IMG/VR virus record: IMGVR_UViG_3300044257_000012
Reading direction: 5' to 3' (one strand)
DNA length: 41,389 nucleotides
Source: a virus
Positions 544-31,055 of the stretch are shown in pieces. Position 1 is the first letter of the stretch; each line of letters opens with the position of its first letter. The notes under the pieces are model-generated. The model was not told the origin of the DNA. It made no database searches and saw nothing but the letters and a program-made list of their open reading frames with translations. Made by a program: the position numbers and the translations under genes.

Positions 544-1389
544 TCAGTTCGTGGGGGTGACGACGTGTCCGCCGAATTGACAGTGAAGAACACCCCGCAC
601 GCGGACCAGCGGCCAACCGTGCTGCGGGCAGTCCAGCGGGTTGCGGCGGCGCTCGGCGTTCACTCGCGCGTCTTGCCGAGCGGACTCGATCACGGCCATC
701 AGCCCGTTCCACCCACCCGCGGGTGCGGGTGTCGTGATCGACGGCGCGCCGAGCGTCATCTGAGATTCAATACCGTCAGGCGCGATGCCCTGAATGGCTA
801 CCGTGGGCGCACCGAGCGTTATCGGCGCGGCAATGCCCGTAGGGGTGATTGCGGTATCACCGCCTGTGGCAGTGAATTCGAAGTCGACGAAGTAGCACGT
901 TCCGCCACCGCCGCTCGGGTAGGTGGCGGACGCGTCGATGGCGAACGCCCCATTGCGCAGCGAACCCAGGCCGACCGGATCGTCACCGTTGGCGTCCGCC
1001 GTGATGTCACCGTTGACCAGGTCACCGGTGAAGAATGACGTCGTGGCGACGTACCGGCCAGCACCTGAGAAGATGCACGCGCGGTAGAGGGTGCTCGTGG
1101 TGACGCTCTGGGGGGTATCGAACGTGACCGTGTTCCAGGTTCCACCGGTGGGCGCACTGCCCGTCGTCTTGGTAGCCAGCAACGTCCCCGCGGGGGACGG
1201 GGTGTCAGCAGCGTCGACGCGATACAGCAGCGCCGTGTACGTCCCGCCGACCGTGACCGTGGCGTAGAACCTGACGCCGGACACCGTGCCTGCCGTGGCG
1301 AATCTGGCCGTGGTGGCTGTGGTGATGCCGGGAGCGCCGTCGGACGCGTCCGTGATGGTGGGGGTCTGGCTGGTAAACAGGTTGGCCAC
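544..1389 (-). CDS. DUF4082-like virion protein (possible fibre or decoration protein)
   Basis: 281-aa ORF. N-terminus MANLFTSQTP..DASDG...GVRFY resembles the DUF4082 signature. Thr/Gly/Ala-rich, with a C-terminal Cys/His cluster. Confidence 0.6.
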   Translation of the reverse strand: MANLFTSQTPTITDASDGAPGITTATTARFATAGTVSGVRFYATVTVGGTYTALLYRVDAADTPSPAGTLLATKTTGSAPTGGTWNTVTFDTPQSVTTSTLYRACIFSGAGRYVATTSFFTGDLVNGDITADANGDDPVGLGSLRNGAFAIDASATYPSGGGGTCYFVDFEFTATGGDTAITPTGIAAPITLGAPTVAIQGIAPDGIESQMTLGAPSITTPAPAGGWNGLMAVIESARQDARVNAERRRNPLDCPQHGWPLVRVRGVLHCQFGGHVVTPTN

Positions 1390-3013: not shown

Positions 3014-3196
3014 ATGGCCAGCACTCGCACCGCCGAAGACGTGCGTCACGAGGTCATCACCTCGCTTGCCGGATCGGAGTCCGAGTTCAACGTCGACGGG
3101 ATCGTCGACGCCATCGTGAGCAACTACGGTCTCGACTCGATCGACGACATCCCCAGCAACGCCTACTGGACCATCGTCGAGAACAACGCGCTGTGA
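3014..3196 (+). CDS. hypothetical small acidic protein
   Basis: 60-aa ORF, first gene after the promoter. GAGG 9 nt upstream of the ATG. Confidence 0.6.
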   Translation: MASTRTAEDVRHEVITSLAGSESEFNVDGIVDAIVSNYGLDSIDDIPSNAYWTIVENNAL

Positions 3197-3438
3197 CCGG
3201 GCCTGGATCGAATGAAGGACTCGGCGAAGCGTTGCACTGGGCGCGCGACTCGTATCTCGTGAATGCGGATCGCGACTTCCTCCTACTCGAAGCGGGAAAG
3301 CGATCGAGAGACGTCACGAGTCTGATCGAACTCCGATCATGGATCGGGAACAAGCGCCGCACGGCCAGGGACGGACGCGCACTCGCGAAACGCTGGGGAG
3401 TCACCCTCCCCAGCGAATCAAATCAGGAGCACCGATGA
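3193..3438 (+). CDS. hypothetical protein
   Basis: 81-aa ORF. GTGA start/stop overlap with the upstream gene. Confidence 0.55.
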   Translation: MTGPGSNEGLGEALHWARDSYLVNADRDFLLLEAGKRSRDVTSLIELRSWIGNKRRTARDGRALAKRWGVTLPSESNQEHR

Positions 3439-3977
3439 ACAAGATCCCGACACTTTTCCGGCGTGACCCTGCCGACATGAAACGAGTCCTCCCTGAGGTC
3501 AACCCAGAATGCCAGTGGGTGATAGACGGGGAGGGTGTCGCGACTCGCAAGTATGACGGCACGTGCGTCATGTTTGACGGTGAGTACTGGTGGGCAAGGC
3601 GAGAAGTCAAGCGTGACGCGGTTCCGCCGACAAACTACGTTCCGATCTCCATCGACCTGAACACGGGCAAAACGATGGGGTGGGAACCGATCGGACAGTC
3701 GTCGTTCGCGAAGTTCCACGCGGAAGCGCTAGGGGCGTCGGATCGAAACCTCACGCCGGGCACCTTCGAGCTAATCGGCGCGAGAATCAACAAGAATCCT
3801 GAAGCGGTTCCTTCGGGGCATCGTCTGGTCCGCCATGAATACGCTGCCCTCCTTCCCGGCGCTCCACGCGACTACGATGCGCTACATGCATATCTCGCCG
3901 AATTCGACGGTGAGGGTATCGTCTGGCATCACCCGGACGGGCGCATGGCAAAACTCAAGCGGCGCGACTTCGTCTAG
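3435..3977 (+). CDS. minimal ATP-dependent nucleic-acid ligase (RNA/DNA ligase nucleotidyltransferase domain only)
   Basis: ORF 3339..3977 trimmed to ATG 3435 (AGGAG upstream, ATGA overlap). Motif I KYDGT, motif IV EGIVWH and motif V KLKRRDF. 180 aa. Confidence 0.7.
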   Translation: MNKIPTLFRRDPADMKRVLPEVNPECQWVIDGEGVATRKYDGTCVMFDGEYWWARREVKRDAVPPTNYVPISIDLNTGKTMGWEPIGQSSFAKFHAEALGASDRNLTPGTFELIGARINKNPEAVPSGHRLVRHEYAALLPGAPRDYDALHAYLAEFDGEGIVWHHPDGRMAKLKRRDFV

Positions 3978-4083: not shown

Positions 4084-4112
4084 TTGCGCATCGATGAATC
4101 AGGGAGTAGTAT
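4084..4112 (+). promoter_or_regulatory. sigma70-like promoter TTGCGC-N17-TAGTAT
   Basis: -35 at 4084..4089 and -10 at 4107..4112. The surrounding ~60 nt is homologous to 2911..2975. Confidence 0.5.
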
Positions 4113-4151: not shown

Positions 4152-4454
4152 ATGTCGAACGAGTTGCAAGAGATTCGCAAGAGCATGACCGGCAAAATGT
4201 ATTGTGCGCTCACGACAGGCAGCCACGTAGGGTATACATGCATTGGCCAGAGGGTCACGCTGAACGCCCTGAGGCGCCGCGGCTTGATCGCGGATGACAA
4301 CCGATGGACTCGGCTTGGATGGGCCATGGTCTTGTGGATCGTCGCCACTGAGCCGGGGTGGAATCCCGCATACTTCAAACTCCCCCAGGACGTTCACACC
4401 GAAGCCCTAGCGGAAGACGCTTCGCGGCGAGACCAGCGCAACTCCGCATCCTGA
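4152..4454 (+). CDS. hypothetical protein (single-gene cassette)
   Basis: 100-aa ORF. CGAGGGGCGA lies 5 nt upstream of the ATG. Has its own promoter and terminator. Confidence 0.6.
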   Translation: MSNELQEIRKSMTGKMYCALTTGSHVGYTCIGQRVTLNALRRRGLIADDNRWTRLGWAMVLWIVATEPGWNPAYFKLPQDVHTEALAEDASRRDQRNSAS

Positions 4455-5866: not shown

Positions 5867-6708
5867 GCGAGTACCTCTTTCATGATGTTGACGAGAGCCG
5901 CGCGATCCCAGTTGACGGCGGTTTCTTTCTGCTCGTGCTGCTCGTGCTCTTGCGATTCCCTCGCGAGGGCTCGCGCGCTGACGCCCGCAGCAACCTCTTG
6001 CGGGAGGATGTTCACCCAACCGGCGAGGTAGTCGTCGATCGACTCGGCCGACTCGTCATCGTCCCCGACGATCTCATCGACGAGTCCGGCATCGAGTGCG
6101 GTCTGGCCGGTATACCAGACACCATCCTCACCGTTCTCCAGCATCTTCGCGCGCCAGAACTCGACATCCTCGCCCGCTTTCTCGGCGTAGATGTCCGCGA
6201 TGTTCGCCGACGCCAAGTCCAGCAACTCGACCTTGCGCATCAGGGAGTCGCGGTTGCCGAACACGCCGGTCATCGCATCGTGGATCATGAACATTGCATT
6301 GCGCGATGTCTTGACCGTGTCGCACGCGAGCATGACGAACGATGCCGCCGAAGCAGCGATGCCGTCGACGTACCCCGTCGTCAGGCCGGAATGCCGGGAG
6401 ATGAGTGAGTGGATGGCAACACCATCGAACGCGTCGCCACCGCCGGAGTTGATCCGCACGTCCAGCGGACCGGGGCCGACCTCGTGCAGGATGCGCGCCA
6501 CGTCGCTGGCCGAGATGCCGTCCTCAAACCAGCTACCTCCGCCGATCCGTCCGTAGATCATCAGCTCAGCCGGCGCTTCAGCAGTCACCCGCGCGCGCAT
6601 CGCCAGTCCGGGGACATCGGCCAGAGGACGAACGGCGGGTTGGTTGGACATCGCGTACGCCACGACAGGATCAAGTGCGCTGAGAATGCCGCGCCTACGT
6701 TTGTTCAT
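5863..6708 (-). CDS. prohead (capsid maturation) protease, ClpP/S14-like
   Basis: 281 aa. INSGGGD, GIAASAASF (Ser) and MFMIHDA (His) motifs. Acidic C-terminal tail. Lies between portal and capsid. Confidence 0.85.
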   Translation of the reverse strand: MNKRRRGILSALDPVVAYAMSNQPAVRPLADVPGLAMRARVTAEAPAELMIYGRIGGGSWFEDGISASDVARILHEVGPGPLDVRINSGGGDAFDGVAIHSLISRHSGLTTGYVDGIAASAASFVMLACDTVKTSRNAMFMIHDAMTGVFGNRDSLMRKVELLDLASANIADIYAEKAGEDVEFWRAKMLENGEDGVWYTGQTALDAGLVDEIVGDDDESAESIDDYLAGWVNILPQEVAAGVSARALARESQEHEQHEQKETAVNWDRAALVNIMKEVLA

Positions 6709-6945: not shown

Positions 6946-7161
6946 TCAGAACGCCACCGAAACGAGAGGCTTGCCCGAGCTGCGGGCATCGCGCTCACTG
7001 GCATAGACGGTGACGCTACGGGCCAGCACGTCGGACGAGTCGGGGCCGATGTGCACCACGGCCTCTTTTCCGGCCACCTGAACGGCGCGAGCGGCAATGG
7101 TATGCGCGCCATTATCGACGAACACCCGGACGTCATCTCCGACTTTCAGTGCGGCCATCAT
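6946..7161 (-). CDS. hypothetical small protein
   Basis: 71-aa ORF. ATGA overlap with the portal stop. Confidence 0.5.
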   Translation of the reverse strand: MMAALKVGDDVRVFVDNGAHTIAARAVQVAGKEAVVHIGPDSSDVLARSVTVYASERDARSSGKPLVSVAF

Positions 7162-8381
7162 TCATCCTCTTCAGCGGCGGGAATCGCGCGGGGAATCGCG
7201 GGGGCGGGTTCCTTCACGGTCATCGGGGGGAGACCGCATACCTCAGCGGCTTCGAGCGGATCGACACGCGCACCGACCAGCGTGGCGAACGCCGTCGTGC
7301 GCGCGGCGAGATCAAGGCGCTCCGATTCGGCATCGGCGGGGATCGGGGAGCGGTAGTTGTACTCGTGGCTCTTCCAGAGCGGACCGAACATCGGCAGTAG
7401 TCGCGAATTCAGGACACCGCGGATGTCTTCCAATCGCGGGATGGTGAGTGTCTGCGCCATGAGCGTCATCGACGCTTCCGCGCTCGCTCGGTTGACGTCG
7501 TCCACGTCGCCGATGCCGAACTTCGGGAAGCCGAACGTGTCGAACACGGCCTGCCGAGTGAGGCCGCGGCTCTCGACGAATTGCATGTCTTTCTGCGTGT
7601 ACGACAGGGGGGTGAAATCACCCTCTTCGAGCACGGCGACGCGGCCGGCATTCTGTACGCCCTGGTGCTGGAAGCGCCAACGCTCGACGAGTTCTTCGAA
7701 CTCGGTCTCGCTCATGCGCCGGCCGACCCTGATGATGCCACCCGGATTGGCGGAGTTGCGATACAGCGATGCTTGCCAGGTGGACTGTGCGTCACTCTGC
7801 GCCAGGTCGGACGCCAGCGCGCCGATCGGCGACTCGCCGCGGAACGGATCGGACGGCGATGGCAGGAACGACGTGATCACGTCGTCGACGTCGAGCGGGA
7901 TCTCTTCACCGTCAGGTGAGCGGTAGACGTATCCGGCGATGAACTTGGTGGTGCTCGGCACCACGAACATGCGGTCGGGGCGGACCGGCCAGATCTCGAC
8001 GGGCATCCCGCCGATCTTGACCAGCACCCACCAAAATTCGCCGCACAGGTCCTTGTGCTGCTGAGATGCGTTGACGAGTAGCGCGCGGCTCATGAAGTCG
8101 TTCGGCTTGCGCCAGACTTTCAGCGGCGCGGCGTTCTCCGCGCGCACCCCTTCCAGTGGAACGGGTGCGTCGCCAGCCGTCGTCGGCTTGGCGCACAGAT
8201 CCCACTCGACCATCGACGTCATACGCGCGAGCTTTGTCACCACGCCGTACAGAGTGGCCGTGGCCGTGAGGGAGTCGAGCTCGCTCGATCGATCCCGCCG
8301 ACTGAACAGCCCTGTTCCGCTGTAGAGTGGGCGTCCGGCCTGGGACCGAGGGATGAGCGGGACCGGGGTGTCGTTCACCAT
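7158..8381 (-). CDS. portal protein (HK97-family-like)
   Basis: ORF 7158..8618 trimmed to ATG 8381. 407 aa, acidic C-terminus, positioned upstream of protease and capsid. Confidence 0.85.
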   Translation of the reverse strand: MVNDTPVPLIPRSQAGRPLYSGTGLFSRRDRSSELDSLTATATLYGVVTKLARMTSMVEWDLCAKPTTAGDAPVPLEGVRAENAAPLKVWRKPNDFMSRALLVNASQQHKDLCGEFWWVLVKIGGMPVEIWPVRPDRMFVVPSTTKFIAGYVYRSPDGEEIPLDVDDVITSFLPSPSDPFRGESPIGALASDLAQSDAQSTWQASLYRNSANPGGIIRVGRRMSETEFEELVERWRFQHQGVQNAGRVAVLEEGDFTPLSYTQKDMQFVESRGLTRQAVFDTFGFPKFGIGDVDDVNRASAEASMTLMAQTLTIPRLEDIRGVLNSRLLPMFGPLWKSHEYNYRSPIPADAESERLDLAARTTAFATLVGARVDPLEAAEVCGLPPMTVKEPAPAIPRAIPAAEEDE

Positions 8382-8413
8382 CCCGCCGAGAAGCGAGCGA
8401 AGACTCAACGCGT

Positions 8414-8457
8414 CACCCCCGGCATCATGATCGCGATGATACAGCACAAAACCACAC
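8414..8457. repeat. 44-bp direct repeat, copy 1
   Basis: cacccccggcatcatgatcgcgatgatacagcacaaaaccacac is identical at 9502..9545. Confidence 0.95.
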
Positions 8458-8481
8458 CTCGCGCTGAGGTGTGGTTTTGTG
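8445..8481 (-). terminator. rho-independent terminator (16-bp stem)
   Basis: cacaaaaccacacctc-gcgct-gaggtgtggttttgtg immediately after the stop of gene 8488..9129. Confidence 0.7.
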
Positions 8482-8487
8482 TGCGAC

Positions 8488-9129
8488 TCAGGAGATGTCG
8501 AAACGCTCCTGAGTCGCCTCGACGGCGAGACTCCACACCTCGCACCATCCTTCTGCGCGAGCCAGGTCTTGCAGATCTCCCCAGGACGCCCCATCGCGCA
8601 GCGCGGAGAGAACCCCATTCACCTGATCTTCGTAATCGTCTAGGTAGTCGCCGACGATCCACGCAATGAGAGGGGATGAGTATTCAGCCTTGCCGTACTC
8701 CGCCGACGCCGCAGCGCGCACCTTGCGGTACTCCGTCCACGCCGCGTCGCACACCTTGTCACACTCCGCCGACGCCGCAGCGCGCACCTTGCGGTACTCC
8801 GTCCACGCCGCGGCGCACACCTTGTCGTTCTCCGCCAACGCCGCAGCGCGCACCTTGCGGTACTCCGTCCACGCCGCGTCGCACACCTTGTCGCACTCCG
8901 CCGACGCCGCAGCGCGCACCTTGCGGTACTCCGTCCACGCCGCGTCGCGCACCTTGTTGTACTCCGCCAACGTCGCAGCGCACACCTTGTCGTACTCCGC
9001 CAACGCCGCGTCGCGCACCTTGTCGTACTCCGCCAACGCCGCGTCGCACACCTTGCCGTACTCCGCCAACGCCACGCGCTGCTCTATGGGTAGCGGAAGT
9101 GTGATCTTAATTCGCCCCTCATTGGTCAT
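8488..9129 (-). CDS. tandem 11-residue-repeat protein
   Basis: 213 aa. About 12 consecutive A-x-x-E-Y-x-K-V-x-x-A units followed by a unique acidic C-terminal domain. Has its own promoter and terminator. Confidence 0.75.
   Translation of the reverse strand: MTNEGRIKITLPLPIEQRVALAEYGKVCDAALAEYDKVRDAALAEYDKVCAATLAEYNKVRDAAWTEYRKVRAAASAECDKVCDAAWTEYRKVRAAALAENDKVCAAAWTEYRKVRAAASAECDKVCDAAWTEYRKVRAAASAEYGKAEYSSPLIAWIVGDYLDDYEDQVNGVLSALRDGASWGDLQDLARAEGWCEVWSLAVEATQERFDIS
8680..9072. repeat. tandem repeat, 33-bp unit x about 12 (66/132-bp higher order)
   Basis: Periodic ccgccgacgccgcagcgcgcaccttgcggtactccgtccacgccgc.... All frames on both strands are open across it. Confidence 0.9.
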
Positions 9130-9135
9130 GCCAAA

Positions 9136-9164
9136 AGTCTAGCACGCACGAATCAAACGCACAA
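9136..9164 (-). promoter_or_regulatory. promoter TTGTGC-N17-TAGACT, 6 nt from ATG 9129
   Basis: Reverse complement reads ttgtgc gtttgattcgtgcgtgc tagact tttggc ATG. No SD is present. Confidence 0.55.
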
Positions 9165-9168
9165 GAAT

Positions 9169-9516
9169 CTAGCGTCGACGCAGTTCGAGGAAGAACGCCC
9201 CAGCTCCGCCAACCACTAGCGCAGCACTCGCTGAGTGCTGCGCGGCGGCCACCGTGAACGATGTAAGGCCGGCGAGCACGAGCGCGTGACGCGACAGGAA
9301 GACGGCCAGAAACGCGAACACGGCGACCGCGAAGCGCGCGCCCGCGTTTCTGGCCGAACCGAGCAGGCGCTTAGCTCGCAACCCCGCGAGAGCGAACGTG
9401 CCCAGCTTGATCCTGATCGAGGCATCCCTGTCGGCCAGAAGGCTGGACAGGGTCACGCGAGCGCGCACGGGGGGACGCACCGCGTGCACTCCGATCGTGA
9501 CCACCCCCGGCATCAT
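9169..9516 (-). CDS. membrane protein
   Basis: ORF 9169..9558 trimmed to ATGATG at 9516 inside the 44-bp repeat. 115 aa with 2-3 hydrophobic helices. Confidence 0.55.
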   Translation of the reverse strand: MMPGVVTIGVHAVRPPVRARVTLSSLLADRDASIRIKLGTFALAGLRAKRLLGSARNAGARFAVAVFAFLAVFLSRHALVLAGLTSFTVAAAQHSASAALVVGGAGAFFLELRRR

Positions 9517-9545
9517 GATCGCGATGATACAGCACAAAACCACAC
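9502..9545. repeat. 44-bp direct repeat, copy 2
   Basis: Identical to 8414..8457. Confidence 0.95.
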
Positions 9546-9550
9546 GGGAA

Positions 9551-9580
9551 AGGCGCACGTCCGGTTCAGGACGTGCGCCT
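9551..9580 (-). terminator. terminator hairpin
   Basis: aggcgcacgtcc-ggttca-ggacgtgcgcct downstream of the lipoprotein gene. Confidence 0.6.
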
Positions 9581-9603
9581 CGTTTCGTGCTGACCGACCC
9601 TGG

Positions 9604-9954
9604 CTACTTGTTGTCTTCCTCGCTGGACTGCAAGTCCTCGGTGCGCGCACGCGGTGAGCTGTCCGGCGCGCTGGGGTTGACGTCGATCGCACCCGCGCCG
9701 TTGACGATCCGGCCGTCCGCGGTGCACCCGTCGTAGACGATGAATTCATAGTCGTCGTCCCCGCCGTCGCCGAGTGCCGGCGTCCAGTAGATCAAGATCG
9801 AGCCGTCGCAGAACTTCTGAAGCGTTCCGTTCGTGCCGGGGACCTCAACAGAGTTCGTCTCATCCTTGTCGATCGTGCGCCGAGCACACCCGCCAACTCC
9901 AGCGATGGCGATGACGCCGACGATTAGTGCTGTCAGGATTCGCTTCATTTTCAT
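9604..9954 (-). CDS. secreted lipoprotein
   Basis: MKMKRILTALIVGVIAIAGVGGC is a signal peptide plus a lipobox-like AGVGG-C. GAGAGGGA SD. ATGA overlap with the upstream gene. Confidence 0.7.
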   Translation of the reverse strand: MKMKRILTALIVGVIAIAGVGGCARRTIDKDETNSVEVPGTNGTLQKFCDGSILIYWTPALGDGGDDDYEFIVYDGCTADGRIVNGAGAIDVNPSAPDSSPRARTEDLQSSEEDNK

Positions 9955-10106
9955 TTTCCCTCTCGCTTGTCACGGTGTTCGCGCCCTACTTGCATGTACG
10001 TCTTCTTGCACGTGCAACCCGCGCCGTGCTCACACCCGTTGCGCGAGTGATGTCTGCGTGGATGCCCACAGTTCTTCTGTCCACAGTTCTGTTCGCAGTC
10101 TGCCAT
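9951..10106 (-). CDS. Cys/His-rich small protein (possible metal-binding)
   Basis: ORF 9951..10181 trimmed to ATG 10106, preceded by CGAGGGGCT. 51 aa with 7 Cys and 7 His in the first 40 residues. Confidence 0.6.
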   Translation of the reverse strand: MADCEQNCGQKNCGHPRRHHSRNGCEHGAGCTCKKTYMQVGREHRDKREGK

Positions 10107-10135
10107 TAGCCCCTCGGTCTTTCGTGATGGTCGGA

Positions 10136-10372
10136 TTACTCGGTGACGTACCCGTCGGGGAAGTGGACTTCCGACGCGCACCCGTTCGCGTCGACATTGA
10201 TCTCCAGGCCGTAGATCTCGACAGTCTCAATCGGCACGTGCCGATTTCGCGCGTAGGCGACGTACGAGACGTCCGACTCGAAATACCTAATGATCTCCGC
10301 AACCTTCTCGTCACGCTTCATCCGTCCCGCAAGGAGTTCGGTGAGCCATTTCTCGTCGTCCGTCATCGCCAT
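10136..10372 (-). CDS. hypothetical protein
   Basis: ORF 10136..10408 trimmed to ATG 10372. 78 aa. A -10 box lies 6 nt upstream. Confidence 0.6.
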   Translation of the reverse strand: MAMTDDEKWLTELLAGRMKRDEKVAEIIRYFESDVSYVAYARNRHVPIETVEIYGLEINVDANGCASEVHFPDGYVTE

Positions 10373-10378
10373 GCTTAG

Positions 10379-10408
10379 ATTATTGCACACGGGAAAGGCG
10401 CGCCGCAA
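10379..10408 (-). promoter_or_regulatory. promoter TTGCGG-N18-AATAAT, 6 nt from ATG 10372
   Basis: Reverse complement reads ttgcgg...gtgtgc aataat ctaagc ATG. No SD is present. Confidence 0.4.
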
Positions 10409-10420
10409 TACGGCGCGCCT
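10396..10420 (-). terminator. terminator-like hairpin
   Basis: aggcgcgccg-caata-cggcgcgcct. Followed on the minus strand by ttcccgtgtg, which also follows hairpin 9551..9580. Confidence 0.45.
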
Positions 10421-10435
10421 AGATTTCTCGACTTC

Positions 10436-10600
10436 CTACTTCCCGCCGCGCTCGATCCCCTTACCGAACACGCGCGCCAGTTTCTCGCTTGCTTCGCGTG
10501 CGGCCTCGTCGACGCGTCGCCACTTCTCGCCGTCGCTGACCGATTCAGCCGCGCGCGATCCGCCCTGGCTTTCGAGGCTCCACCCCTTGCGCGGCTTCAT
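10436..10600 (-). CDS. hypothetical small basic protein (54 aa, below the ORF-track cut-off)
   Basis: Hand translation gives MKPRKGWSLESQGG...GIERGGK. GGGAGGG SD. ATGA overlap with the upstream stop. Confidence 0.55.
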   Translation of the reverse strand: MKPRKGWSLESQGGSRAAESVSDGEKWRRVDEAAREASEKLARVFGKGIERGGK

Positions 10601-10788
10601 CTGACCACCCTCCCGTCAGGCGTCACGCATAGGTAGCGCGTGCGATAGGTGTACTGCGGAGTCGCCCCGAGCTGCGCGCAATGCTCATTGGCGTTCCTGA
10701 CGTCGCGACCCCATGCCCAGTCAATGAGCAGGTACGACCCATAGAAGACGGCCGCCACGACAAGAAGGGCAACGATGGCGGTCTTCAC
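10597..10788 (-). CDS. small membrane protein
   Basis: 63 aa. N-terminal TM helix AIVALLVVAAVFYGSYLLI. 4-nt overlap with the upstream gene. Confidence 0.6.
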   Translation of the reverse strand: MKTAIVALLVVAAVFYGSYLLIDWAWGRDVRNANEHCAQLGATPQYTYRTRYLCVTPDGRVVR

Positions 10789-11105
10789 GACTCCTCCACT
10801 TCGCTGAAGATCTCACTCGTGGGCGGCATCGGTGCCCAGTCGAGATCAAGCACGTCGAGGCTGGTCCACTCCCCAATGCCGCCATCGATCTTGATCCACA
10901 CTCCATTGCGCTCCCGCACCTCAATCGTGCCGACTCGCGAGTCGCGGCAGACAACCCGCTTGCCGCACAGCATGAGCTTGCAGTCGGGGCAGTCGACGGC
11001 GAACCATCGCTCGCTCACGGCCTGTGCGCTGACCACGCCGCAAGCCGGCCCGATGAAACCCTGTCCCTTGCTGAACCGCCTGTAATTCTCGTAATGAATC
11101 GCCAT
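10785..11105 (-). CDS. hypothetical protein
   Basis: 106-aa ORF with CPDC..C..C cysteines. A promoter -10 lies 6 nt upstream of the ATG. Confidence 0.6.
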   Translation of the reverse strand: MAIHYENYRRFSKGQGFIGPACGVVSAQAVSERWFAVDCPDCKLMLCGKRVVCRDSRVGTIEVRERNGVWIKIDGGIGEWTSLDVLDLDWAPMPPTSEIFSEVEES

Positions 11106-11111
11106 GCCATG

Positions 11112-11140
11112 AATCTACCGCGCATGAATCAAGATCGCAA
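11112..11140 (-). promoter_or_regulatory. promoter TTGCGA-N17-TAGATT, 6 nt from ATG 11105
   Basis: Reverse complement reads ttgcga tcttgattcatgcgcgg tagatt catggc ATG. Confidence 0.55.
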
Positions 11141-13298: not shown

Positions 13299-13327
13299 AC
13301 TCTACACTGCACGAATCGAACACGCAA
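13299..13327 (-). promoter_or_regulatory. promoter TTGCGT-N17-TAGAGT
   Basis: Reverse complement of 13299..13327. Lies in the 35-nt gap after the terminase stop. Confidence 0.55.
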
Positions 13328-13333
13328 GTATCT

Positions 13334-14710
13334 TCAGTTGATAAATCTCACGCGCATCCTAGGCTGGAGATCGAGGTACGCGCCGACGTAGCGCGCCGTA
13401 TCCATGCTGTGGTCGTTAACCTTCAGCGGCTTATCCTTCACGGGCTTACCGTCCATCGACGGTTCCCAGACGTAGCCCTCAACCTCCTCGCCCATCCACG
13501 TCGGCCGGCCAGACTCGCCGAGCTCGGTGTCACGCGAGACCAGGGCATCGCGACACAGGAGCGCGCGCGGCAGGCCGTCAGGCTGCACCACGAGGCGCGC
13601 GGACAGCGCCTGGATACCCTCGCTCACGTTCTTGTTGGCGGCGAGCGTCCCGATCTCCGCGTGCCGCTCGAACGTCGCCCGGTCCTCGGCATCGTGGTCA
13701 CACACCACGGCCATCGGGCGCGGGTACTTCCACACGCCGTCAGCCGTGCGCACCACGGCCAGGATGTCGCGCACGTGATCCTCCACCAGGCGCTTGGTCC
13801 GGTAGATCTCCTTCTCCAGATACATGCGCCCATCGGGATCGATCGCCCACATCTGCCACACGAAAGGGTTCGTGTACCCGAAGTCGATCCCCCACACCCG
13901 CGGCCAGTCACGAGGGAGAATCTTGCGATCGATGAGGTGAACGTCGGACTGCCACCCCTCGTAGATCATGCCCTCAGCCGCGGCCCACCGTCCGTACCGC
14001 AAACGCTCACGCCGCACACCCGTCAGCCGATCCAGCCGTGCGATGTAGTCACGCCCGTACGACGTCACCACACCATCGGCACCGAAGATCCGCGGGTTGT
14101 CCTCGTGGCGCGACAGGAGCATCTTCGTCAGGCCGTCGTCGCATCTCTTCTTGAGCCAGTGCGACGGCTGCTGCGGGTTACAGTCGGCCAGCAACTGCTG
14201 GAACGACGTCCGCCCGTTACGTAGCCGACTGTTGACCTTCTCCCAGTCATCGAGCGTGAAGTCGGTCCCCTCTTGCAGGAAGGCGACGTCGTACTCCGCG
14301 CTCATCACCTTGTCGGCGTTGTCCATCCCGCCGACGACGATCACAGAGCCGTTCTTATAGATGTACTGCGCCGGCTTCTCCCCCGACCCCCCGTGCCACT
14401 TCATGTGCCCCTGAGCGATCGACTCCGCGGCCACCTGCTCCCGCAGCGTCACCAGGCCTGTCGACGTGAGCGATTTGTGCGTCTTGCGCAGCACGAGCGC
14501 ACGCATCCCCCTAAGGTGATGCTCGTGATCCTTTGTGCACCCCTTTTCGCACATTCCATTCATCAGGCACATCAAATGAATCTTGTACAGCGCCCCATAG
14601 CTTTTGCCGGTTCCGGCGGCACCGACTGTCAGAACCTCAGGGGAGCGGTCGGCCAGAAGGGTGCGAGCGGCCCCCCTGGTCTCGATCCGCCTGACGATCG
14701 GCTCAGGCAC
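13334..14710 (-). CDS. terL: terminase large subunit
   Basis: Walker A GAAGTGKS, Walker B DVAFLQE, nuclease motifs GIDFG / CDHD / DHSMDTARY. The track start is TTG 14719; GTG 14710 is preferred because GGGAG lies 10 nt upstream. Confidence 0.9.
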   Translation of the reverse strand: MPEPIVRRIETRGAARTLLADRSPEVLTVGAAGTGKSYGALYKIHLMCLMNGMCEKGCTKDHEHHLRGMRALVLRKTHKSLTSTGLVTLREQVAAESIAQGHMKWHGGSGEKPAQYIYKNGSVIVVGGMDNADKVMSAEYDVAFLQEGTDFTLDDWEKVNSRLRNGRTSFQQLLADCNPQQPSHWLKKRCDDGLTKMLLSRHEDNPRIFGADGVVTSYGRDYIARLDRLTGVRRERLRYGRWAAAEGMIYEGWQSDVHLIDRKILPRDWPRVWGIDFGYTNPFVWQMWAIDPDGRMYLEKEIYRTKRLVEDHVRDILAVVRTADGVWKYPRPMAVVCDHDAEDRATFERHAEIGTLAANKNVSEGIQALSARLVVQPDGLPRALLCRDALVSRDTELGESGRPTWMGEEVEGYVWEPSMDGKPVKDKPLKVNDHSMDTARYVGAYLDLQPRMRVRFIN

Positions 14711-14906
14711 AGGACACAAGCTCCCATGCTCGAATGAGGCGAACGGCGAGAATCAGCGTCTCGTCCGAGCTCATTGGTCGGTCCGGCGCTCTCATGCGCA
14801 CCGACCTCGACGTGCGCATAACGGTGATCGACGCGTCCGCCGGAATGCCTCGCGCGTGCAGCAATCCGGGCACACGCTCATCCTCCGCCCAATCCTGATC
14901 ACTCAC
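14703..14906 (-). CDS. hypothetical protein between the terminase subunits
   Basis: 67-aa ORF. GTGA overlap with the upstream stop. Its 3' end overlaps the terL start. Confidence 0.4.
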   Translation of the reverse strand: MSDQDWAEDERVPGLLHARGIPADASITVMRTSRSVRMRAPDRPMSSDETLILAVRLIRAWELVSCA

Positions 14907-20230: not shown

Positions 20231-20567
20231 GCGGGGAACCTACCACGGTCAACGGTGACCGTCTTTCGTGGTAACGTCGTGGCTGATGTTCCCCTCGTTC
20301 GAGTGATTGACCCGTCGTTCGTGCTAACGTCGTCAGCAGAAGTGCCCGTTCGCCCGGTCCCGCATGATTCTTGCGCTTGAGGTTCGCCCCTCCCTCGCCT
20401 GATGATTGCCGCTCCCGCCGGACGGGCACTCTTCTTTCACTTGCGCGTTCAGGTTATCGATGGTAGATTAGTCAACGGGTCACCGGGCAGGCAGAGGCTG
20501 AATACGTCGTCACGCTGTCGGAAGAGACTCACGTCAACGAGGAACGACGAAACATCGAGGGGCGAGT
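20231..20567. promoter_or_regulatory. divergent early control region
   Basis: Rightward promoter TTGCGC-N17-TAGATT (20441..20469). Leftward -10 TAGGTT (20237..20242). GTCAACGG(G)T(G/C)ACCG sites at 20248..20261 and 20471..20485. ttcgtgNtaacgtcgt at 20265 and 20318. Confidence 0.55.
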
Positions 20568-23455: not shown

Positions 23456-26263
23456 GTGAGTGAGGCTTTCCAGCTCTACGACTATCAGCAGGAGGCCATC
23501 TCTGATCTCTTCTCTCGTTGGGATGCTGGCGCGACGCGCGTGCCGACGGTGGCTGCCACTGGACTCGGCAAGACTGAGATCTTCATTGCGGTGATCGATC
23601 GCTGGCTCGCGCTCAATCCGAGCAAGCGTGTGCTCGTCGTCGCGCACACCAACGAACTGATCGATCAGGCTGCAAAGAAATCTCGACTGCGCATGCCGCA
23701 TCGCCGCATCGGCATCGTCAAGGGCGCGCTGAATCAATCCACCGCCGACGTCATCATCTCGTCACGCCAGACACTCGCGAGTGTCAAGCGCAGAAATCAG
23801 ATCAAGCGTGTGGGCCTAATGATCGTCGACGAATGCTTCCCTGCTGGAACGCTGGTCGGGGGCGGGCCTATCGAGACGCTAAAGCCTGGCGACATGGTGC
23901 AGTCGTGGGATGAGGCGTCCGGTGAGGTTGTAGCGCGCCCCGTGGTCGCCGTCATGCGCAAGCGTCCACAAGCCGTGGTTCGCGTCTCCCTGGCCGGCGG
24001 GCAGGTGTTCGCCTGCACCCCGAACCATCCCATCCTCACGAGTCGGGGATGGTGTCCCGCCGGAATGCTTGCGCGTGGTGAGTTGGTGGTATCGTTTACT
24101 CATGACGGACAAACGAGTAAAACAGCCGGGGATCGGATCAGGGGGCGCAATGAGGCTTGCGGCGGAAGCGCGGAGAGTCGCGCGCACGACTCCGCCGTGC
24201 ACGTGGTGCGGAAACCTCGTGGACATGCCGAACGACACCATTCACAGGTATCGAACATGGCAGAAGACCGGACGGGCGTTCGACACCGACCAGTGCCGTG
24301 CGCGATGGGTGAGCCTGGATTCGTCGAATCGGATGGCTCGGACCAACAGGGTGCACGCTTCGGCGCGCATGATGGCGAACAACCCGATGGCTCGGGAAGA
24401 GACTCGCGAGAAAATGAAAGCGACGCTCTTGGCGATCGGTCATCAGCCGCGAATTCGTGGCGGGAATGGAACTCCACCACCCCAAGCTCAGCGCCTATTG
24501 GCGGAGTTCTTGGGGTGGCCCATGGAAGTAGTCGTTCCTCCCGGCGACGGGGATCGCCCCTATCACTACAAGTTGGATATAGCGCATCCGGCAATGAAGG
24601 TGTGCGTGGAGGTGGACGGGGGGTCCCACTACGCGCCGGCGCGCCGAGACTCGGACCGTCGGAGGGACGAACGCCTAGCGCGTATCGGGTGGTTGACGTT
24701 CAGGTTCTCGAATCAGGAAGCGACGGAACGTACGGCGGAGTGTGCCCAGACGGTTTTGTCTACAACATTGAAGTGGCGGGCACGCATACCTACCTGATTG
24801 GGGATGGCGTGGTGGCTCACAATTGTCATCACGCGCATTCAAAAAATACCTACGGGAAGGTGCTGAAACACTACGGGGCGTTTGACGCGTGCGAGCACTC
24901 CGACGATCCCGACTCTGTCGACGTGGCCGCATGCAACCCGTGCGTATCAACCGACAGGCACACGCCACCACGAATCAAAGTCGCTGGATTCACCGCAACG
25001 CTCGTTCGCGGCGACAAGGCGAAGCTGAGCACAGTGTGGGAGGACTGTACGTATTCGAGGGACATCCTCTTCGGCATTCGTCATGGCTACCTGCTCGACG
25101 TGAAGGGAGAGCGGATCATCGTCGATGATCTCAACTTGAAGAACGTCAAACAGGCGGGTGGGGACTTCAGCGAGTCCGCGCTCGCCGAGGAATTGGAGCG
25201 ATCGTTCGCGATCGAGACGATCGCCGAGGAGTACGCACGTCTCGCGCACGATCGCAAGGGCATCGCGTTCTGGCCACTCGTCGCCACAGCCGAGCACGCC
25301 GCTCAGGTGTTCAACGACGCGGGCATCCCGAGCGCGGCAGTGTCCGGCCAGACCGACAGGCACGAGCGTGCGAGCACGCTGGCAGACCTTGCCGCCGGGC
25401 GGATTCAGGTCGTGCACAACGCGATGGTGCTAACGGAAGGGTTCGACGACCCGTCCATCGAATGCATCGTGATCGGACGCCCGACGAGATCCCCCGTCCT
25501 CTTTCCGCAGATGGTCGGCCGCGGACTGCGCAAGCGTCACGACATCCCCATCGAACAGCAGCGTCCGTGCCTACTGTTCGTGGTCAGCGGAGCTGCCGAG
25601 ACGATGGACTTGCGAGGCATGATCGACCTCTCGCCTGAGTCCAACCTTCAGGGCGCGTACGACGAGAACCCGGACGCCACTCTCGGAGAGCTGGAAGAGT
25701 GGGTCGAGCAGCAGATCGAGGAGGAGCTTGACGCGCAGCGTTCGGGAGCGTCGTACGAATTCGAGAGTGAGCAGTACGCCGGCCCCGTCACCACGGCCAC
25801 ATTCGACCCTCTCGGCAGGGATAAGGCGTGGGGGAAGACGGACGGAGGTACCTACTATCTGCGTGCATCGCGGTTCGGCAAGGGCGACGCGTTCATCTTC
25901 TTGACTCCCGCTCTCTCGGGTCTGGCCGACGCATACGACATCGCCGCCTGCTCCACGAATACCGGCTTCGATCAGTTCGTCGACGCCGCGCCCGAGTGGG
26001 TGTCCGGCTTCCCCGAGCACGTGAACATGCCACTGGAGCGCGCGCTGCTGTTCAGCGAGGAGATCGCCGGGGGTGCGTACAACTCACACAAGAGCCCGTG
26101 GCACAGCCGGCCGCCGGGCAAGCACCTGAAAATCAAGGCGTGGCGCTTGGGCGTCGACGTCGGCCAGATGACGCACGGTGAATTGCAAGAGGCCGTCGAC
26201 GCGCGCATCGCCAACGCGCGAATCGATCCGCTCGTTGCTACCGTACGATCAAGTGTGCAATAA
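23456..26263 (+). CDS. SF2 (DExH) DNA helicase precursor containing an intein
   Basis: Motif I ATGLGKT, motif II MIVDE|...|CHH split by the insertion, motif III GFTAT, motif VI QMVGRGLRK. 935 codons, 605 without the intein. Confidence 0.85.
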   Translation: MSEAFQLYDYQQEAISDLFSRWDAGATRVPTVAATGLGKTEIFIAVIDRWLALNPSKRVLVVAHTNELIDQAAKKSRLRMPHRRIGIVKGALNQSTADVIISSRQTLASVKRRNQIKRVGLMIVDECFPAGTLVGGGPIETLKPGDMVQSWDEASGEVVARPVVAVMRKRPQAVVRVSLAGGQVFACTPNHPILTSRGWCPAGMLARGELVVSFTHDGQTSKTAGDRIRGRNEACGGSAESRAHDSAVHVVRKPRGHAERHHSQVSNMAEDRTGVRHRPVPCAMGEPGFVESDGSDQQGARFGAHDGEQPDGSGRDSRENESDALGDRSSAANSWREWNSTTPSSAPIGGVLGVAHGSSRSSRRRGSPLSLQVGYSASGNEGVRGGGRGVPLRAGAPRLGPSEGRTPSAYRVVDVQVLESGSDGTYGGVCPDGFVYNIEVAGTHTYLIGDGVVAHNCHHAHSKNTYGKVLKHYGAFDACEHSDDPDSVDVAACNPCVSTDRHTPPRIKVAGFTATLVRGDKAKLSTVWEDCTYSRDILFGIRHGYLLDVKGERIIVDDLNLKNVKQAGGDFSESALAEELERSFAIETIAEEYARLAHDRKGIAFWPLVATAEHAAQVFNDAGIPSAAVSGQTDRHERASTLADLAAGRIQVVHNAMVLTEGFDDPSIECIVIGRPTRSPVLFPQMVGRGLRKRHDIPIEQQRPCLLFVVSGAAETMDLRGMIDLSPESNLQGAYDENPDATLGELEEWVEQQIEEELDAQRSGASYEFESEQYAGPVTTATFDPLGRDKAWGKTDGGTYYLRASRFGKGDAFIFLTPALSGLADAYDIAACSTNTGFDQFVDAAPEWVSGFPEHVNMPLERALLFSEEIAGGAYNSHKSPWHSRPPGKHLKIKAWRLGVDVGQMTHGELQEAVDARIANARIDPLVATVRSSVQ
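23834..24823 (+). mobile_element. intein (330 codons) inserted in helicase motif II
   Basis: Begins CFPAGTLV (block A), has TPNHPILT (block B) and VYNIEVAGTHTYLIGDGVVAHN (blocks F/G), and is followed by +1 Cys. Excision restores DECHH. Confidence 0.8.
24150..24797 (+). CDS. nested +1-frame endonuclease gene (Zn-ribbon + NUMOD3-like + DUF559/Vsr-like PD-(D/E)xK domain)
   Basis: ORF 24069..24797. ATG 24150 is preceded by AGGGGGCGCA. Contains CTWCGN..C and YHYKLDIAHPAMKVCVEVDGGSHY..RRDERLARIGWLTFRF. The frame-0 translation of the same DNA is a featureless Arg/Gly/Ser-rich stretch. Confidence 0.7.
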   Translation: MRLAAEARRVARTTPPCTWCGNLVDMPNDTIHRYRTWQKTGRAFDTDQCRARWVSLDSSNRMARTNRVHASARMMANNPMAREETREKMKATLLAIGHQPRIRGGNGTPPPQAQRLLAEFLGWPMEVVVPPGDGDRPYHYKLDIAHPAMKVCVEVDGGSHYAPARRDSDRRRDERLARIGWLTFRFSNQEATERTAECAQTVLSTTLKWRARIPT

Positions 26264-27029: not shown

Positions 27030-27976
27030 GCCTGCTCTTCAGCAACGATCGGCCAGGGCAGGAAGAGCCCGAGGGCAAGGAGTTCGGGGAGCGGTACTCC
27101 GGGCGGTATCACCTACCCCTACTGCCGGGAGAGAAGGGCACGAAGGCGGGGGGTGACTACGTCTCGCGCGGCGTGATGTCGGCTACCAACCTGGCAGGGT
27201 CGATGGTGGACTCGCGCACGTTGAGCGTCTGGGAGCGTGAACGTGGACAGATCGGCATGGCGATGCGTCCCGAGCTGTTCGAGCGCCTGGTATTCGACGT
27301 CAATGCCGCCGCAGCCGCGGGTGCCGACATGAGCGCGTTGAAGGACTCGACCTTCGGAAAGGTACTGGTCTCGTCCCTGGCCGAGATCCACGACCTGGCG
27401 AGGACGGCCAGCGGCGGGAATCGCGCGGCGGCGATGGGCACGAACAGGCATGACGCGTGGGAGGCTCGCGCGCAGACGGGCGCGCTGCTCGGCACTCCGC
27501 AGATCAATCGCGAGATCGAGGCACTTGAAGCGCTACTGGTCGAGAATCGATTGGCGCGCGTCGACGGCCTGCAAGAGCGCGTGGTGCGTAACGTCGGACT
27601 GAACGCGGCCGGCAGGTTCGACGACATCCTCATGTCGGAGAAAACCGGCAAGCTCTACATGGCAGACCTCAAGACGAAGCGGACGGCGTTCTACTCGTGG
27701 ATGGAGTCGTGGATTCAGCAGGCCGTCTATGCCACTGCCGAGTGGATGCTGAACGACGCGCGGGACGGTTACGTTCCCGGCCCGTCGCACCACGTCGATC
27801 AGAAGACGGCGATCCTGTTGCGGATGCCTTCCGATGGCGCGGCCCCGTACCTCGAACGCGTCGATCTTGAGATCGGGCTACGATGGGCGAAGCTGGCTCG
27901 CGAGGTCACCGACGCGCGCAGTGAGGCGCGGAGTTCGGCAACATTCGAGCTTGCACGATGGACCGGCGAAGAGTAG
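27026..27976 (+). CDS. PD-(D/E)xK exonuclease (RecB/Cas4/RecE-like)
   Basis: GRFDD...YMADLKTKR (D..D-x-K) followed by QQAVY (QxxxY). 316 aa. GTGA overlap. Confidence 0.6.
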   Translation: MSLLFSNDRPGQEEPEGKEFGERYSGRYHLPLLPGEKGTKAGGDYVSRGVMSATNLAGSMVDSRTLSVWERERGQIGMAMRPELFERLVFDVNAAAAAGADMSALKDSTFGKVLVSSLAEIHDLARTASGGNRAAAMGTNRHDAWEARAQTGALLGTPQINREIEALEALLVENRLARVDGLQERVVRNVGLNAAGRFDDILMSEKTGKLYMADLKTKRTAFYSWMESWIQQAVYATAEWMLNDARDGYVPGPSHHVDQKTAILLRMPSDGAAPYLERVDLEIGLRWAKLAREVTDARSEARSSATFELARWTGEE

Positions 27977-28149
27977 AGTAAGCATCAGTTGAGGGGCGAG
28001 AAATCAACTCCCCTAGCGAGACGGCGATTAATTCGCGCGCTAGGTAAGCGGTTGAGGAATCAATCCTGAATGTGTGCGTCGGCGGATCCACGGGAATGGC
28101 CTCCCGGCGCACATCACGCCCCGAATGAGCAGGGCCCGTCGGGGTCTGA

Positions 28150-31026: not shown

Positions 31027-31055
31027 TTGTGCGCTCCATTCGTCCATGCTAGATT
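31027..31055 (+). promoter_or_regulatory. promoter TTGTGC-N17-TAGATT
   Basis: Close match to the genome's promoter consensus. Points toward the 3' end of the lysis genes. Confidence 0.6.

Follow-up and report, generated by a model that had tools for sequence, protein, structure and literature searches.

We analyzed a tandem-repeat gene in a viral genome from IMG/VR (IMGVR_UViG_3300044257_000012). We refer to the whole stretch of DNA, which is 41,389 nt long, as the window. The gene lies at 8488..9129 on the minus strand, next to the gene for the portal protein, and its product consists of a 19-residue N terminus, twelve 11-residue units (hendecads), and an acidic C-terminal domain of 62 residues. 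A first-pass annotation, made from the sequence alone, had described it as a stand-alone gene of twelve 33-bp units that encode an 11-residue repeat. According to Tandem Repeats Finder and the translation, these units are in register across residues 20-151. Our results support the description and the reading in that annotation as essentially right; almost every statement that could be checked held. Hendecad helices and phage accessory genes are familiar. What is new is that this repeat is an unannotated and mainly viral module, and we find the widespread phage module, and the direct evidence for rapid change in rod length, of more interest than the single gene. The window offers a clean example: the genome is complete, the protein has a simple three-part layout, and the gene appears to have a conserved leaderless promoter architecture.

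The repeat gene and its predicted structure

The gene has these parts:

8488..9129, minus strand: coding sequence of the hendecad-repeat protein, 213 amino acids plus stop (from the listing of open reading frames (ORFs), GC content at third codon positions (GC3), and homologues in frame)
9073..9129, minus strand: N-terminal 19 amino acids (MTNEGRIKITLPLPIEQRV), with the family-invariant L-P-L motif
8677..9072, minus strand: repeat array of twelve in-register 33-bp units, 132 amino acids (residues 20-151), with the pattern A-x-A-E-Y-x-K-V-x-x-A
8491..8676, minus strand: acidic C-terminal domain, 62 amino acids, with four short predicted helices and conserved W, GWC..W, and ERF

Tandem Repeats Finder reports 11.7 copies of a 33-nt period at 8688-9073, with 80% matches and 0% indels, and 5.8 copies of a 66-nt period, with 91% matches. 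The spacing of the units is therefore as perfect as had been claimed, but their sequence is not. Of the two longer periods that had been proposed (66 and 132 bp), only the first is supported, because shifting the array against itself by 132 bp gives no more identity than shifting it by 66 bp (93% vs. 94%). The DNA sequence is the same in units 5, 7, 9, and 11, a single nucleotide separates unit 6 from unit 10, and unit 12 is degenerate. At unit position 9, units 1, 3, 6, 8, and 10 have cysteine; two of them (6 and 10) have a second cysteine at position 5. The alternation of cysteine between units was correctly noticed, but it is not strict, as it has one phase slip.

The variation among the units is not spread evenly over the codons. 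Nucleotides vary in 11 of the 33 columns of the array, and 9 of these 11 are at codon positions 1 or 2; of the 11 third-codon positions, 9 are invariant across units 1-11. This pattern suggests that the units were duplicated or homogenized recently, and that the differences that were retained change amino acids.

In a search of 5.8 billion protein clusters, we found 81 relatives of the protein, and all of them are in the frame of 8488..9129 (GC3 of 0.82). Judging from the orthologues, which keep the non-repeat N and C termini, 8488..9129 is protein-coding in this frame. The first-pass annotation stated that every frame on both strands is open across the array. In fact, four of the six frames are stop-free across 8677-9072, and the other two hold 1 and 2 stops. 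The plus-strand ORFs across the array (8666..9142 and 8676..9104) had no homologues in the searches that we made, and we rejected them as by-products of the repeat. We also rejected a diversity-generating retroelement, since we saw no reverse transcriptase encoded by the scanned ORFs and the variation in the array is not specific to adenine.

AlphaFold predicts that residues 15-147 form one continuous helix of ~200 Å (pLDDT is ~90 over most of it). Residues 1-14 are low-confidence coil, and four short helices are predicted at 153-210. When the C-terminal domain was modeled alone, the same four helices were predicted (pLDDT 77, pTM 0.62). This domain is indeed acidic and unique, as annotated, with a pI of 4.05 and 13 Asp or Glu vs. 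3 Lys or Arg.

Several observations support an 11/3 helix, as the first-pass annotation proposed. First, besides the continuous helix in the model, the hydrophobicity of the array has power at a period of 3.66 residues (11/3), and also at 2.75 (11/4). Second, on an 11/3 helical wheel, Tyr5 (core position a), Val8 (d), and Ala1 (h) line up as a straight stripe. Across 546 units from 92 proteins, which were found by using positions 4, 5, 7, and 8 as anchors, position a is Tyr in 84%, d is Val in 89%, and h is Ala in 90%. The conserved unit positions are 1, 3, 4, 5, 7, and 8 (A, A, E, Y, K, and V), with the conservation at positions 4, 5, 7, and 8 being partly built in by their use as anchors. 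Third, the most variable positions (9, 2, 6, and 10) are immediate neighbors on the wheel, at 65-163 degrees. Of the 330 ways to choose four positions, we count 11 that form an unbroken run on the wheel, and such segregation is what one would expect of an 11/3 helix that exposes a single face. From the size of the conserved arc, we suspect that much of the helix surface is buried, either in an oligomer or by packing on two sides. That the array behaves as an 11/3 helix is supported; the right-handed coiled coil is a prediction.

The array does not resemble a single alpha-helix of the ER/K type: 45 of its 132 residues are charged (34%), and it has a clear Tyr/Val/Ala stripe. Using Foldseek, we found no match in the PDB with E < 1 for the full model or for the C-terminal domain, and none in BFVD for the C-terminal domain. 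A search of PDB sequences with the window protein gave nothing significant. A ribbon-helix-helix (RHH) fold for the N terminus was rejected: there was no RHH match in Pfam, and a PDB profile search with the N-terminal alignment returned no RHH chain. It is also disfavored by the AlphaFold model, in which the strand-like motif is followed by a helix of more than 130 residues.

The family, its unit numbers, and the wider module

The closest relatives share both ends of the protein. P0001 (5 units), P0002 (7 units; encoded by contig L001), and P0003 have the same N terminus (MTDEGRIKITLPL...) and C-terminal domain, and their unit number is only about 5 to 7. An orthologue on another IMG/VR contig (L012) has ~15 units. 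An exhaustive phmmer search with the C-terminal 73 amino acids against 1.84 billion cluster representatives gave 10 matches, of which ~6 are true relatives; one match, P0082, is a 97%-identical fragment. P0084 (3 units), P0086, P0087, and P0089 are distant members, with central regions that are shorter or are degenerate hendecads. Across the unique N- and C-terminal domains, family members share 32-75% protein identity, and the columns that are invariant across nine members are M1, L11, P12, and L13. On these alignments, this is a small family with conserved ends, whose central hendecads range from degenerate to freshly amplified.

The array had been called a likely copy-number hotspot, and unit number does vary among relatives, from ~3 to ~15 across the family and from 3 to 20 across all carriers of the module. 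The best comparison is with L008 (IMGVR_UViG_3300044760_000039), which is 97.4% identical to the window over 8.8 kb (99.3% for the portal protein). The L008 array reads 8-9-12 in place of units 8-9-10-11-12 of the window, a clean difference of 66 bp, or two units. (The L008 contig ends inside the array, as seen at 1-300 of the contig, and only part of the array is visible.) A two-unit difference from a 97%-identical relative is direct evidence that rod length changes on short timescales. Among relatives, the array gains or loses steps of 33 or 66 bp, which changes the distance between the end modules; these steps presumably occur through slippage or unequal recombination. We also computed dN/dS against L008, which is 0.71 for the 3' 96 codons vs. 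0.05 for the portal gene, but we do not use it as evidence about selection because the alignment pairs non-equivalent units across the 66-bp indel, and this accounts for half of the differences. A metagenome scan with the C-terminal alignment found no relative, and a scan with an exact 35-mer found no match and so no further near-identical genome for comparing copy numbers.

The hendecad unit is not confined to this family. We found at least 90 proteins that contain it, and their head domains or architectures are of at least six kinds. All of the homologues outside of the window family share the repeat only, which is joined to unrelated N-terminal heads:

Class A head: MCEGFG..SHS
Class B head: MC.F.SWIE..GHGAI
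Class C head: MKITL..L...GAC...LF..FDW.WAA
Class D head: ..ACR.AW..HHE..LTEP.ENRI
Further heads: a DUF7666 head, and others

We then scanned IMG/VR and 185,579 species genomes with DNA patterns for two consecutive units. A strict pattern was found in 9 IMG/VR contigs vs. 0 stretches in the species genomes, and a loose pattern was found in 39 IMG/VR stretches vs. 5 stretches in the species genomes. All five of those are on contigs of metagenome-assembled genomes, and one of these contigs has the same length as an IMG/VR contig. The scans show that the hendecad unit is mainly a viral module. The GC content of the carriers ranges from 38% to 68%, so the conservation is at the protein level. The other module genes are mostly in early or replication regions of phage-sized contigs, and in two of these contigs (L002 and L005), pentapeptide-repeat genes are within a few genes of the hendecad-module genes.

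Some phages have two module genes. L047 encodes two 243-residue class-A proteins (3064-3443 and 6396-6511), L052 has two similar genes that resemble those with the GAC-type (class C) head, and IMGVR_UViG_3300050015_000167 (L034 and L051) also has two. The module has therefore been duplicated within genomes.

The repeat does not seem to have been described before. Among 50,697 deposited phage genomes, we found no match to the window protein (tblastn) or to 7000-11000 of the window (megablast). Pfam, PHROGs, NCBIfam, and PADLOC gave nothing above threshold for the window protein, a look-up of the homologue clusters returned no source-given names, and a full-text search of the searchable literature (with motif strings, and with "hendecad" plus phage) returned no description of this repeat. 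Profile similarities were seen only to hendecad-rich or coiled-coil proteins (Scy, DivIVA, ATP synthase b, and V-ATPase E), and these were below threshold and compositional. PDB profile searches with class-A and class-C head-plus-repeat alignments gave insignificant matches to stalk proteins and nothing else. The class-A and class-C relatives also had weak tblastn matches to a 33-bp tandem repeat in Corynebacterium phages, which we judged to be unrelated. (This repeat, TMGALWAHYGR x7, is at 2479-2757 of L019, in gene 87 of Corynebacterium phage Cruella, which is annotated as hypothetical; it is probably unrelated and may not be coding.)

Transcription signals and genomic setting

The candidate transcription signals around the gene, and the copies of the promoter motif elsewhere in the window, are:

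9136..9164, minus strand: promoter-like element, with -35 TTGTGC (9164-9159), 17 nt, and -10 TAGACT (9141-9136), followed by TTTGGC and the ATG (9129)
8445..8481, no strand assigned: hairpin with arms 8445-8460 and 8466-8481, a perfect 16-bp stem, and a 5-nt loop, 7 nt after the stop codon
8414..8457, minus strand: downstream copy of a 44-nt repeat, which gives a mini-ORF of 7 codons (MMPGVTR*); the TGA of this mini-ORF overlaps the portal gene's TTG start
9502..9545, minus strand: upstream copy of the 44-nt repeat; here, the gene for the 115-aa hydrophobic protein starts at 9516 (ATG), without a leader
4084-4112 (+), 9136-9164 (-), 11112-11140 (-), 13299-13327 (-), 20441-20469 (+), 27951-27979 (+), and 31027-31055 (+): copies of TTGYGC-N17-TAGANT

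The promoter and terminator that the first-pass annotation assigned to the gene are both backed by comparisons. The -10 hexamer of the promoter-like element ends 6 nt before the ATG, which would imply a leaderless mRNA. A scan with the strict sigma-70 consensus did not call this element. The motif TTGYGC-N17-TAGANT occurs 7 times in the window, vs. 0.6 times expected by chance. Ahead of the L001 orthologue, and of each of the three family paralogues in another contig (L006), we find the same hexamers with a 17-nt spacer and a gap of 6-7 nt to the ATG. Thus, the same architecture is found before five family genes in three phages (the window, L001, and L006), and the L001 and L006 proteins behind it are only 38-65% identical to the window protein. 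With a -10 element of the TAGRRT type whose end is 6-7 nt from the start codon, this layout is consistent with a vegetative promoter of actinobacteria and a leaderless mRNA.

At two of the window's sites, those ahead of 9129 and 11105, a gap of 6 nt separates the motif from an ATG. Several other sites are followed by a conserved leader (TTGACTTGYAAGYGAG...) that ends in GAGGGGCGA, then a few more bases, and then the ATG. The site at 20441 (+) is in a divergent intergenic region, ahead of a plus-strand helicase/exonuclease block. From its sequence, the promoter plus leader looks like a reusable cassette that is placed before accessory genes. The L012 orthologue has the leadered form (upstream of 9249; GAGGGGCGAACA ATG AAA ACG..., giving MKTIITLPL). 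In the window, the Shine-Dalgarno-like core of this conserved leader has exactly the sequence of codons 4-6 of the repeat gene (9112-9120; GAG GGG CGA, or EGR). The MTNEGR extension may be a former 5' untranslated region that became coding once a leaderless ATG arose. Another ORF of 100 amino acids (4152-4454, plus strand) has its own promoter/leader cassette and lies on the opposite strand inside the block of head genes; it looks like a reverse-oriented accessory insertion.

The hairpin has a folding energy of -32.3 kcal/mol (z = -5.4 vs. shuffles). With a run of A in one arm and of T in the other, this putative terminator could act in both directions. In L001, the family gene is followed at the equivalent place by a hairpin that differs in sequence.

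The 44-nt element is a perfect direct repeat, with copies 1088 bp apart, and contains a -10-like TATCAT, 7 nt, and ATGATGCCGGGGGTG. The same layout of 44-nt element and mini-ORF is found in L001 (MTPGVSR*) and L008. This conservation suggests a late-type promoter, possibly with translational coupling to the portal gene.

The window is a complete phage genome that was assembled as a circle. Its first and last 127 nt (1-127 and 41263-41389) are an identical direct repeat, which suggests a circular assembly overlap and a complete genome of ~41,262 bp. The GC content is 60-67%. The closest deposited relative of its large terminase subunit (TerL) is from Thermobifida phage P1312 (54% amino acid identity), and Streptomyces phages are also among the most similar; the host is probably actinobacterial. 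The neighboring genes that matter here are:

7158..8408, minus strand: portal gene (Pfam PF04860, E = 1e-42), whose TTG start (8408) is preceded by GGGGGTG
9169..9516, minus strand: gene for a small hydrophobic protein of 115 amino acids, with 2-3 hydrophobic segments as judged by eye
9604..9954, minus strand: lipoprotein-like ORF of 116 amino acids, two genes upstream of the repeat gene, with a signal-peptide-plus-Cys start (MKMKRILTALIVGVIAIAGVGGC...) and no family match
13334..14719, minus strand: TerL gene (Pfam PF04466), the upstream boundary of an accessory island

The start of the portal gene, which we inferred by comparison with L001, is ~80 nt downstream of the repeat gene. The repeat gene had been placed between terminase and portal. 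The portal gene is indeed adjacent, but TerL is 4.2 kb upstream, across an island of ~5 kb in which about ten small minus-strand ORFs fill the space, and the L012 orthologue is in an early region. None of the neighboring ORFs in the island has a match in Pfam, PHROG, NCBIfam, or PADLOC. The stop codon of the hydrophobic gene (TAG, 9171-9169) lies just upstream of the -35 hexamer of the repeat gene.

L001 and L006 have the same kind of island, with a family gene adjoining the portal gene, but with differing contents. Their TerL proteins are 72-75% identical to that of the window, and the L006 portal protein is 73% identical. In L001 and L006, but not in L012, a homologue of the 115-aa hydrophobic protein is encoded close to the repeat gene (51% and 50% identity, respectively). 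In L001, this membrane-protein gene is separated from the repeat gene by two extra genes. L006 has three tandem family paralogues between TerL and portal (7983-8357, 8758-9273, and 9312-9803). The second of these paralogues ends in ...LEARR*, like the end of the neighboring membrane protein (...FFLEARR*), which points to a duplication junction in the 3' end of the preceding gene. L012 is from a different phage, and its orthologue lies among helicase, helix-turn-helix, and primase-like genes, far from any portal gene.

Two other genes in the window are worth recording. At 23456-26263 (plus strand), a 935-residue helicase of the ResIII/DEAD type has matches to Hint/intein-type domains at about residues 126-215 and probably contains an intein. 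At 544-1389 (minus strand), a 281-residue ORF with a DUF4082 domain (E = 3e-16) is in a late, probably tail, gene region.

The proposed function of the rod and comparison with known systems

We propose that 8488..9129 is an accessory gene with its own transcription, and that its product is a non-structural intracellular protein whose rod is a length-adjustable, oligomerizing spacer. We put the probability of this reading as a whole at about 0.55. A host-type promoter would read the gene as a leaderless mRNA, transcription would stop at the 16-bp hairpin, and expression would be independent of the late genes and possibly early. The product is predicted to be rod-shaped, with a short N-terminal tail that carries L-P-L, a ~200 Å helix of twelve hendecads, and an acidic four-helix C-terminal domain. 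We infer that the rod self-associates via the Tyr/Val/Ala stripe into a straight or slightly right-handed bundle, because of that stripe and because 7 of the 11 unit positions are conserved over a contiguous arc of ~200 degrees. The narrow variable stripe (positions 9, 2, 6, and 10) would be left exposed on the bundle. The weakest step in the proposal is the function itself: the rod would most likely be a generic, oligomerizing stalk of adjustable length, with specificity residing in the end domains, and the protein would most likely have an intracellular target during infection, either a host or a phage partner, with a role in host takeover, anti-defense, or exclusion.

We favor a non-structural role for two reasons. 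First, the L012 orthologue and the other carriers of the module are in early or replication regions. Second, the window's capsid protein has ~200 amino acids N-terminal to the capsid domain, and there is a gene for a ClpP-type protease. In HK97-type phages, such a capsid extension together with a protease suggests that no separate scaffold protein is needed. The window protein is probably not part of the virion.

Several points weigh against this proposal. The AlphaFold alignments were shallow (4 sequences for the full protein and 9 for the C-terminal domain), and only the monomer was modeled. Core position e is not classically hydrophobic (Arg in 47% of units, Cys in 22%, and Thr in 7%). In other families, position 11 is Pro in 20% of units, often after Gly, which does not fit an unbroken helix there; the rods of those families are probably kinked. 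(The array in the window family lacks Pro.) Searches of families, structures, and phage genomes found no homologue or fold match that bears a function. No integrase or repressor was found among the ORFs scanned in the window genome, so expression from a prophage, as for a classical moron, is unlikely. The repeat gene could also be read through from the late-looking 44-nt element of the neighboring gene, an element that also precedes the portal gene. Finally, the window, L001, L006, and L008 all have the repeat gene immediately ahead of the portal gene.

We considered five alternative explanations, of which the first two below are the most serious. The last two points above, together with an orientation shared with the structural genes, would fit a virion or assembly protein, such as a fibrous coiled coil that acts with the portal or head (a portal-associated fiber, an assembly chaperone, or a scaffold-like factor). 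Long coiled coils are common in phage fibers. But besides the L012 orthologue, which is far from any portal gene, and the other module carriers in early regions, the same type of promoter is found ahead of the plus-strand helicase/exonuclease block and other accessory genes. There is no PHROG or structural-protein match and no homologue in the 50,697 deposited phages. Also, a fixed structural fit is unlikely to tolerate a range of ~3 to 15 units. We consider a virion role to be unlikely.

A second alternative, which the first-pass annotation had mentioned, is an amphipathic 11/3 helix that binds membranes or lipids, as in apolipoproteins, alpha-synuclein, or perilipins. It might work with the adjacent hydrophobic protein and the lipoprotein, for instance in superinfection exclusion or lysis control. 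The 11-residue periodicity fits this, Trp and Tyr are abundant, the gene for the hydrophobic protein is adjacent in three genomes, and the lipoprotein-like ORF at 9604-9954 is nearby. Pro between units in the other families is also reminiscent of the Pro-punctuated repeats of apolipoproteins. The layout of charges on the wheel, however, disfavors this idea. In class-A lipid-binding helices, basic residues are at the boundary between the polar and non-polar faces, and acidic residues are at the center of the polar face. In the hendecad, the invariant Lys is at 229 degrees, opposite the hydrophobic center (~0-30 degrees, so ~160 degrees away), and the invariant Glu is at the boundary (294 degrees), which is the reverse. 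Furthermore, the hydrophobic stripe has just Ala, Tyr, and Val, plus variable Trp/Leu, and the array is net neutral. The adjacency of the hydrophobic gene reflects synteny shared within one phage lineage and is absent from L012. Lipid binding is, in our view, as unlikely as a virion role.

A third alternative starts from the N terminus, where K-I-T-L-P-L might mimic the QLSLPL of Hda. An oligomeric rod would then present at least two motifs to the host's sliding clamp (DnaN), and would block or hijack replication. Among distant family members, L-P-L is all that is invariant at the N terminus; the motif falls within a terminal tail that is predicted to be disordered, and Hda also has its clamp motif at the extreme N terminus. 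The phage has primase/polymerase-like and helicase genes, and no clamp gene was found among the ORFs scanned. The family motif, [KRTI]-[IV]-[TKN]-L-P-L, agrees exactly with QLSLPL at 3 of 6 positions (plus I for L and T for S), but it never has the Gln: its first residue is K, R, T, or I. QLSLPL binds the clamp tightly, clamp-binding pentapeptides commonly follow the consensus QL[S/D]LF or QxxLF, and in E. coli, mutating the first, fourth, or fifth position of the consensus weakens or abolishes clamp binding (PMC12309361). A match of five residues can occur by chance, and in our PDB profile search, T-L-P-L-x-E-x-E-R also matched an ordinary loop-to-helix start in a designed repeat protein. Clamp binding is highly unlikely.

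Fourth, the number of units in the window might be an artefact of assembly, by collapse or expansion. Hendecad arrays do commonly break short-read assemblies: the L008 contig ends inside the array, the repeat is within ~250 nt of a contig end for ~15 of the 39 IMG/VR loci, and two contigs have arrays at both ends. Because of this, copy numbers in metagenomic phages need confirmation from long reads. In the window, however, the 127-nt terminal overlap suggests a graph assembly with k = 127, and every 127-mer in the array is unique. The longest exact repeat inside the array is 55 nt, well short of that overlap, which argues against a collapse. Arrays of ~3-20 units are also found in many independent assemblies. 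We see an artefact as more improbable still.

Last, it is hardly credible that the array acts as DNA (as iterons, or as packaging or regulatory protein-binding sites near the terminase) with an incidental ORF. In favor of this, there are twelve regularly spaced and near-identical units, and with four of six frames open the ORF alone is weak evidence for coding. Against it, the amino acid motif is kept at 38-68% GC with different codons, the N- and C-terminal domains are conserved at 32-75% identity, GC3 is 0.82, the differences between units almost all change amino acids and are at fixed unit positions, and the array is 4.2 kb from TerL.

The proposal of an accessory, length-adjustable rod can be extended to the whole module, although we consider the extension rather doubtful. 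The hendecad may be a new, mainly viral scaffold, whose conserved arc would build a bundle, barrel, or filament and whose variable stripe would be a tunable binding surface. Its length would be reset by gain and loss of units, and its heads would be interchangeable, so that it would be an alpha-helical counterpart of ankyrin or pentapeptide-repeat effectors, directed against periodic or variable host structures in takeover or counter-defense. In the variable stripe, differences between units are almost only amino-acid-changing, and Arg/Cys and Trp/Leu/Arg swaps recur. If the array does form a right-handed coiled coil of programmable length, then it would be useful for protein design and would help to understand how phages present small effector domains.

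Known systems resemble parts of this proposal. The peripheral stalks of rotary ATPases (b of the F type; E and G of the A/V type) are right-handed hendecad coiled coils. They also have long, Ala-rich, charged helices in an 11-residue register, and they act as rigid spacers. They are the only PDB sequences that the repeat profile approached (E ~ 0.2, which is not significant). But there is no homology, the window protein lacks a membrane anchor, and its array is a recent, near-identical, phage-borne repeat with variable units.

The DNA pilot protein H of phiX174 has true 11,3 hendecads and forms a multi-helix decameric tube (PMC7354561). Like our proposal, this is a phage protein in which hendecads build a multi-helix assembly. 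However, it has just three hendecads, followed by eleven heptads, and it is a microvirus virion protein with an unrelated, Gln-rich sequence. Its role in forming a tube has been shown, whereas the window protein is known here from its sequence and from prediction.

The Streptomyces proteins Scy, FilP, and DivIVA/Wag31 are actinobacterial, with long helices that are rich in Ala, Glu, Lys, and Arg and have a hendecad-based register. Scy has a 51-residue superrepeat. The best score of the repeat homologues against the NCBIfam model for Scy is E = 7e-7 and 27 bits, which is far below the family cut-off of 1040, so the similarity is compositional only. Unlike these cytoskeletal proteins, the hendecad module is also in phages with 38-50% GC, which cannot have Streptomyces hosts.

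The 11-mers of apolipoproteins, alpha-synuclein, perilipin, and group-3 LEA proteins have the same period, are in tandem, and resemble some families of the module in having Pro between units. They differ in the layout of charges, which is reversed in the window protein relative to class A, and in that the window unit is highly conserved, with Tyr, Trp, and Cys. There is no sequence similarity. Pentapeptide-repeat proteins and other tandem-repeat accessory proteins of phages are likewise small repeat proteins from early regions, but pentapeptide repeats form a beta-helix rather than an alpha-helical rod, and their sequences are not related.

Finally, the gene resembles the morons of phages. It differs from them in that no integrase or repressor was found in the window and in that its type of promoter is common to other genes in the window. 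Like a moron, it appears to have its own promoter-like element and hairpin terminator, and it lies in a variable island between conserved late genes, whose content and presence differ among relatives: L001 has two extra genes, L006 has three paralogues, and in L012 the gene is elsewhere.

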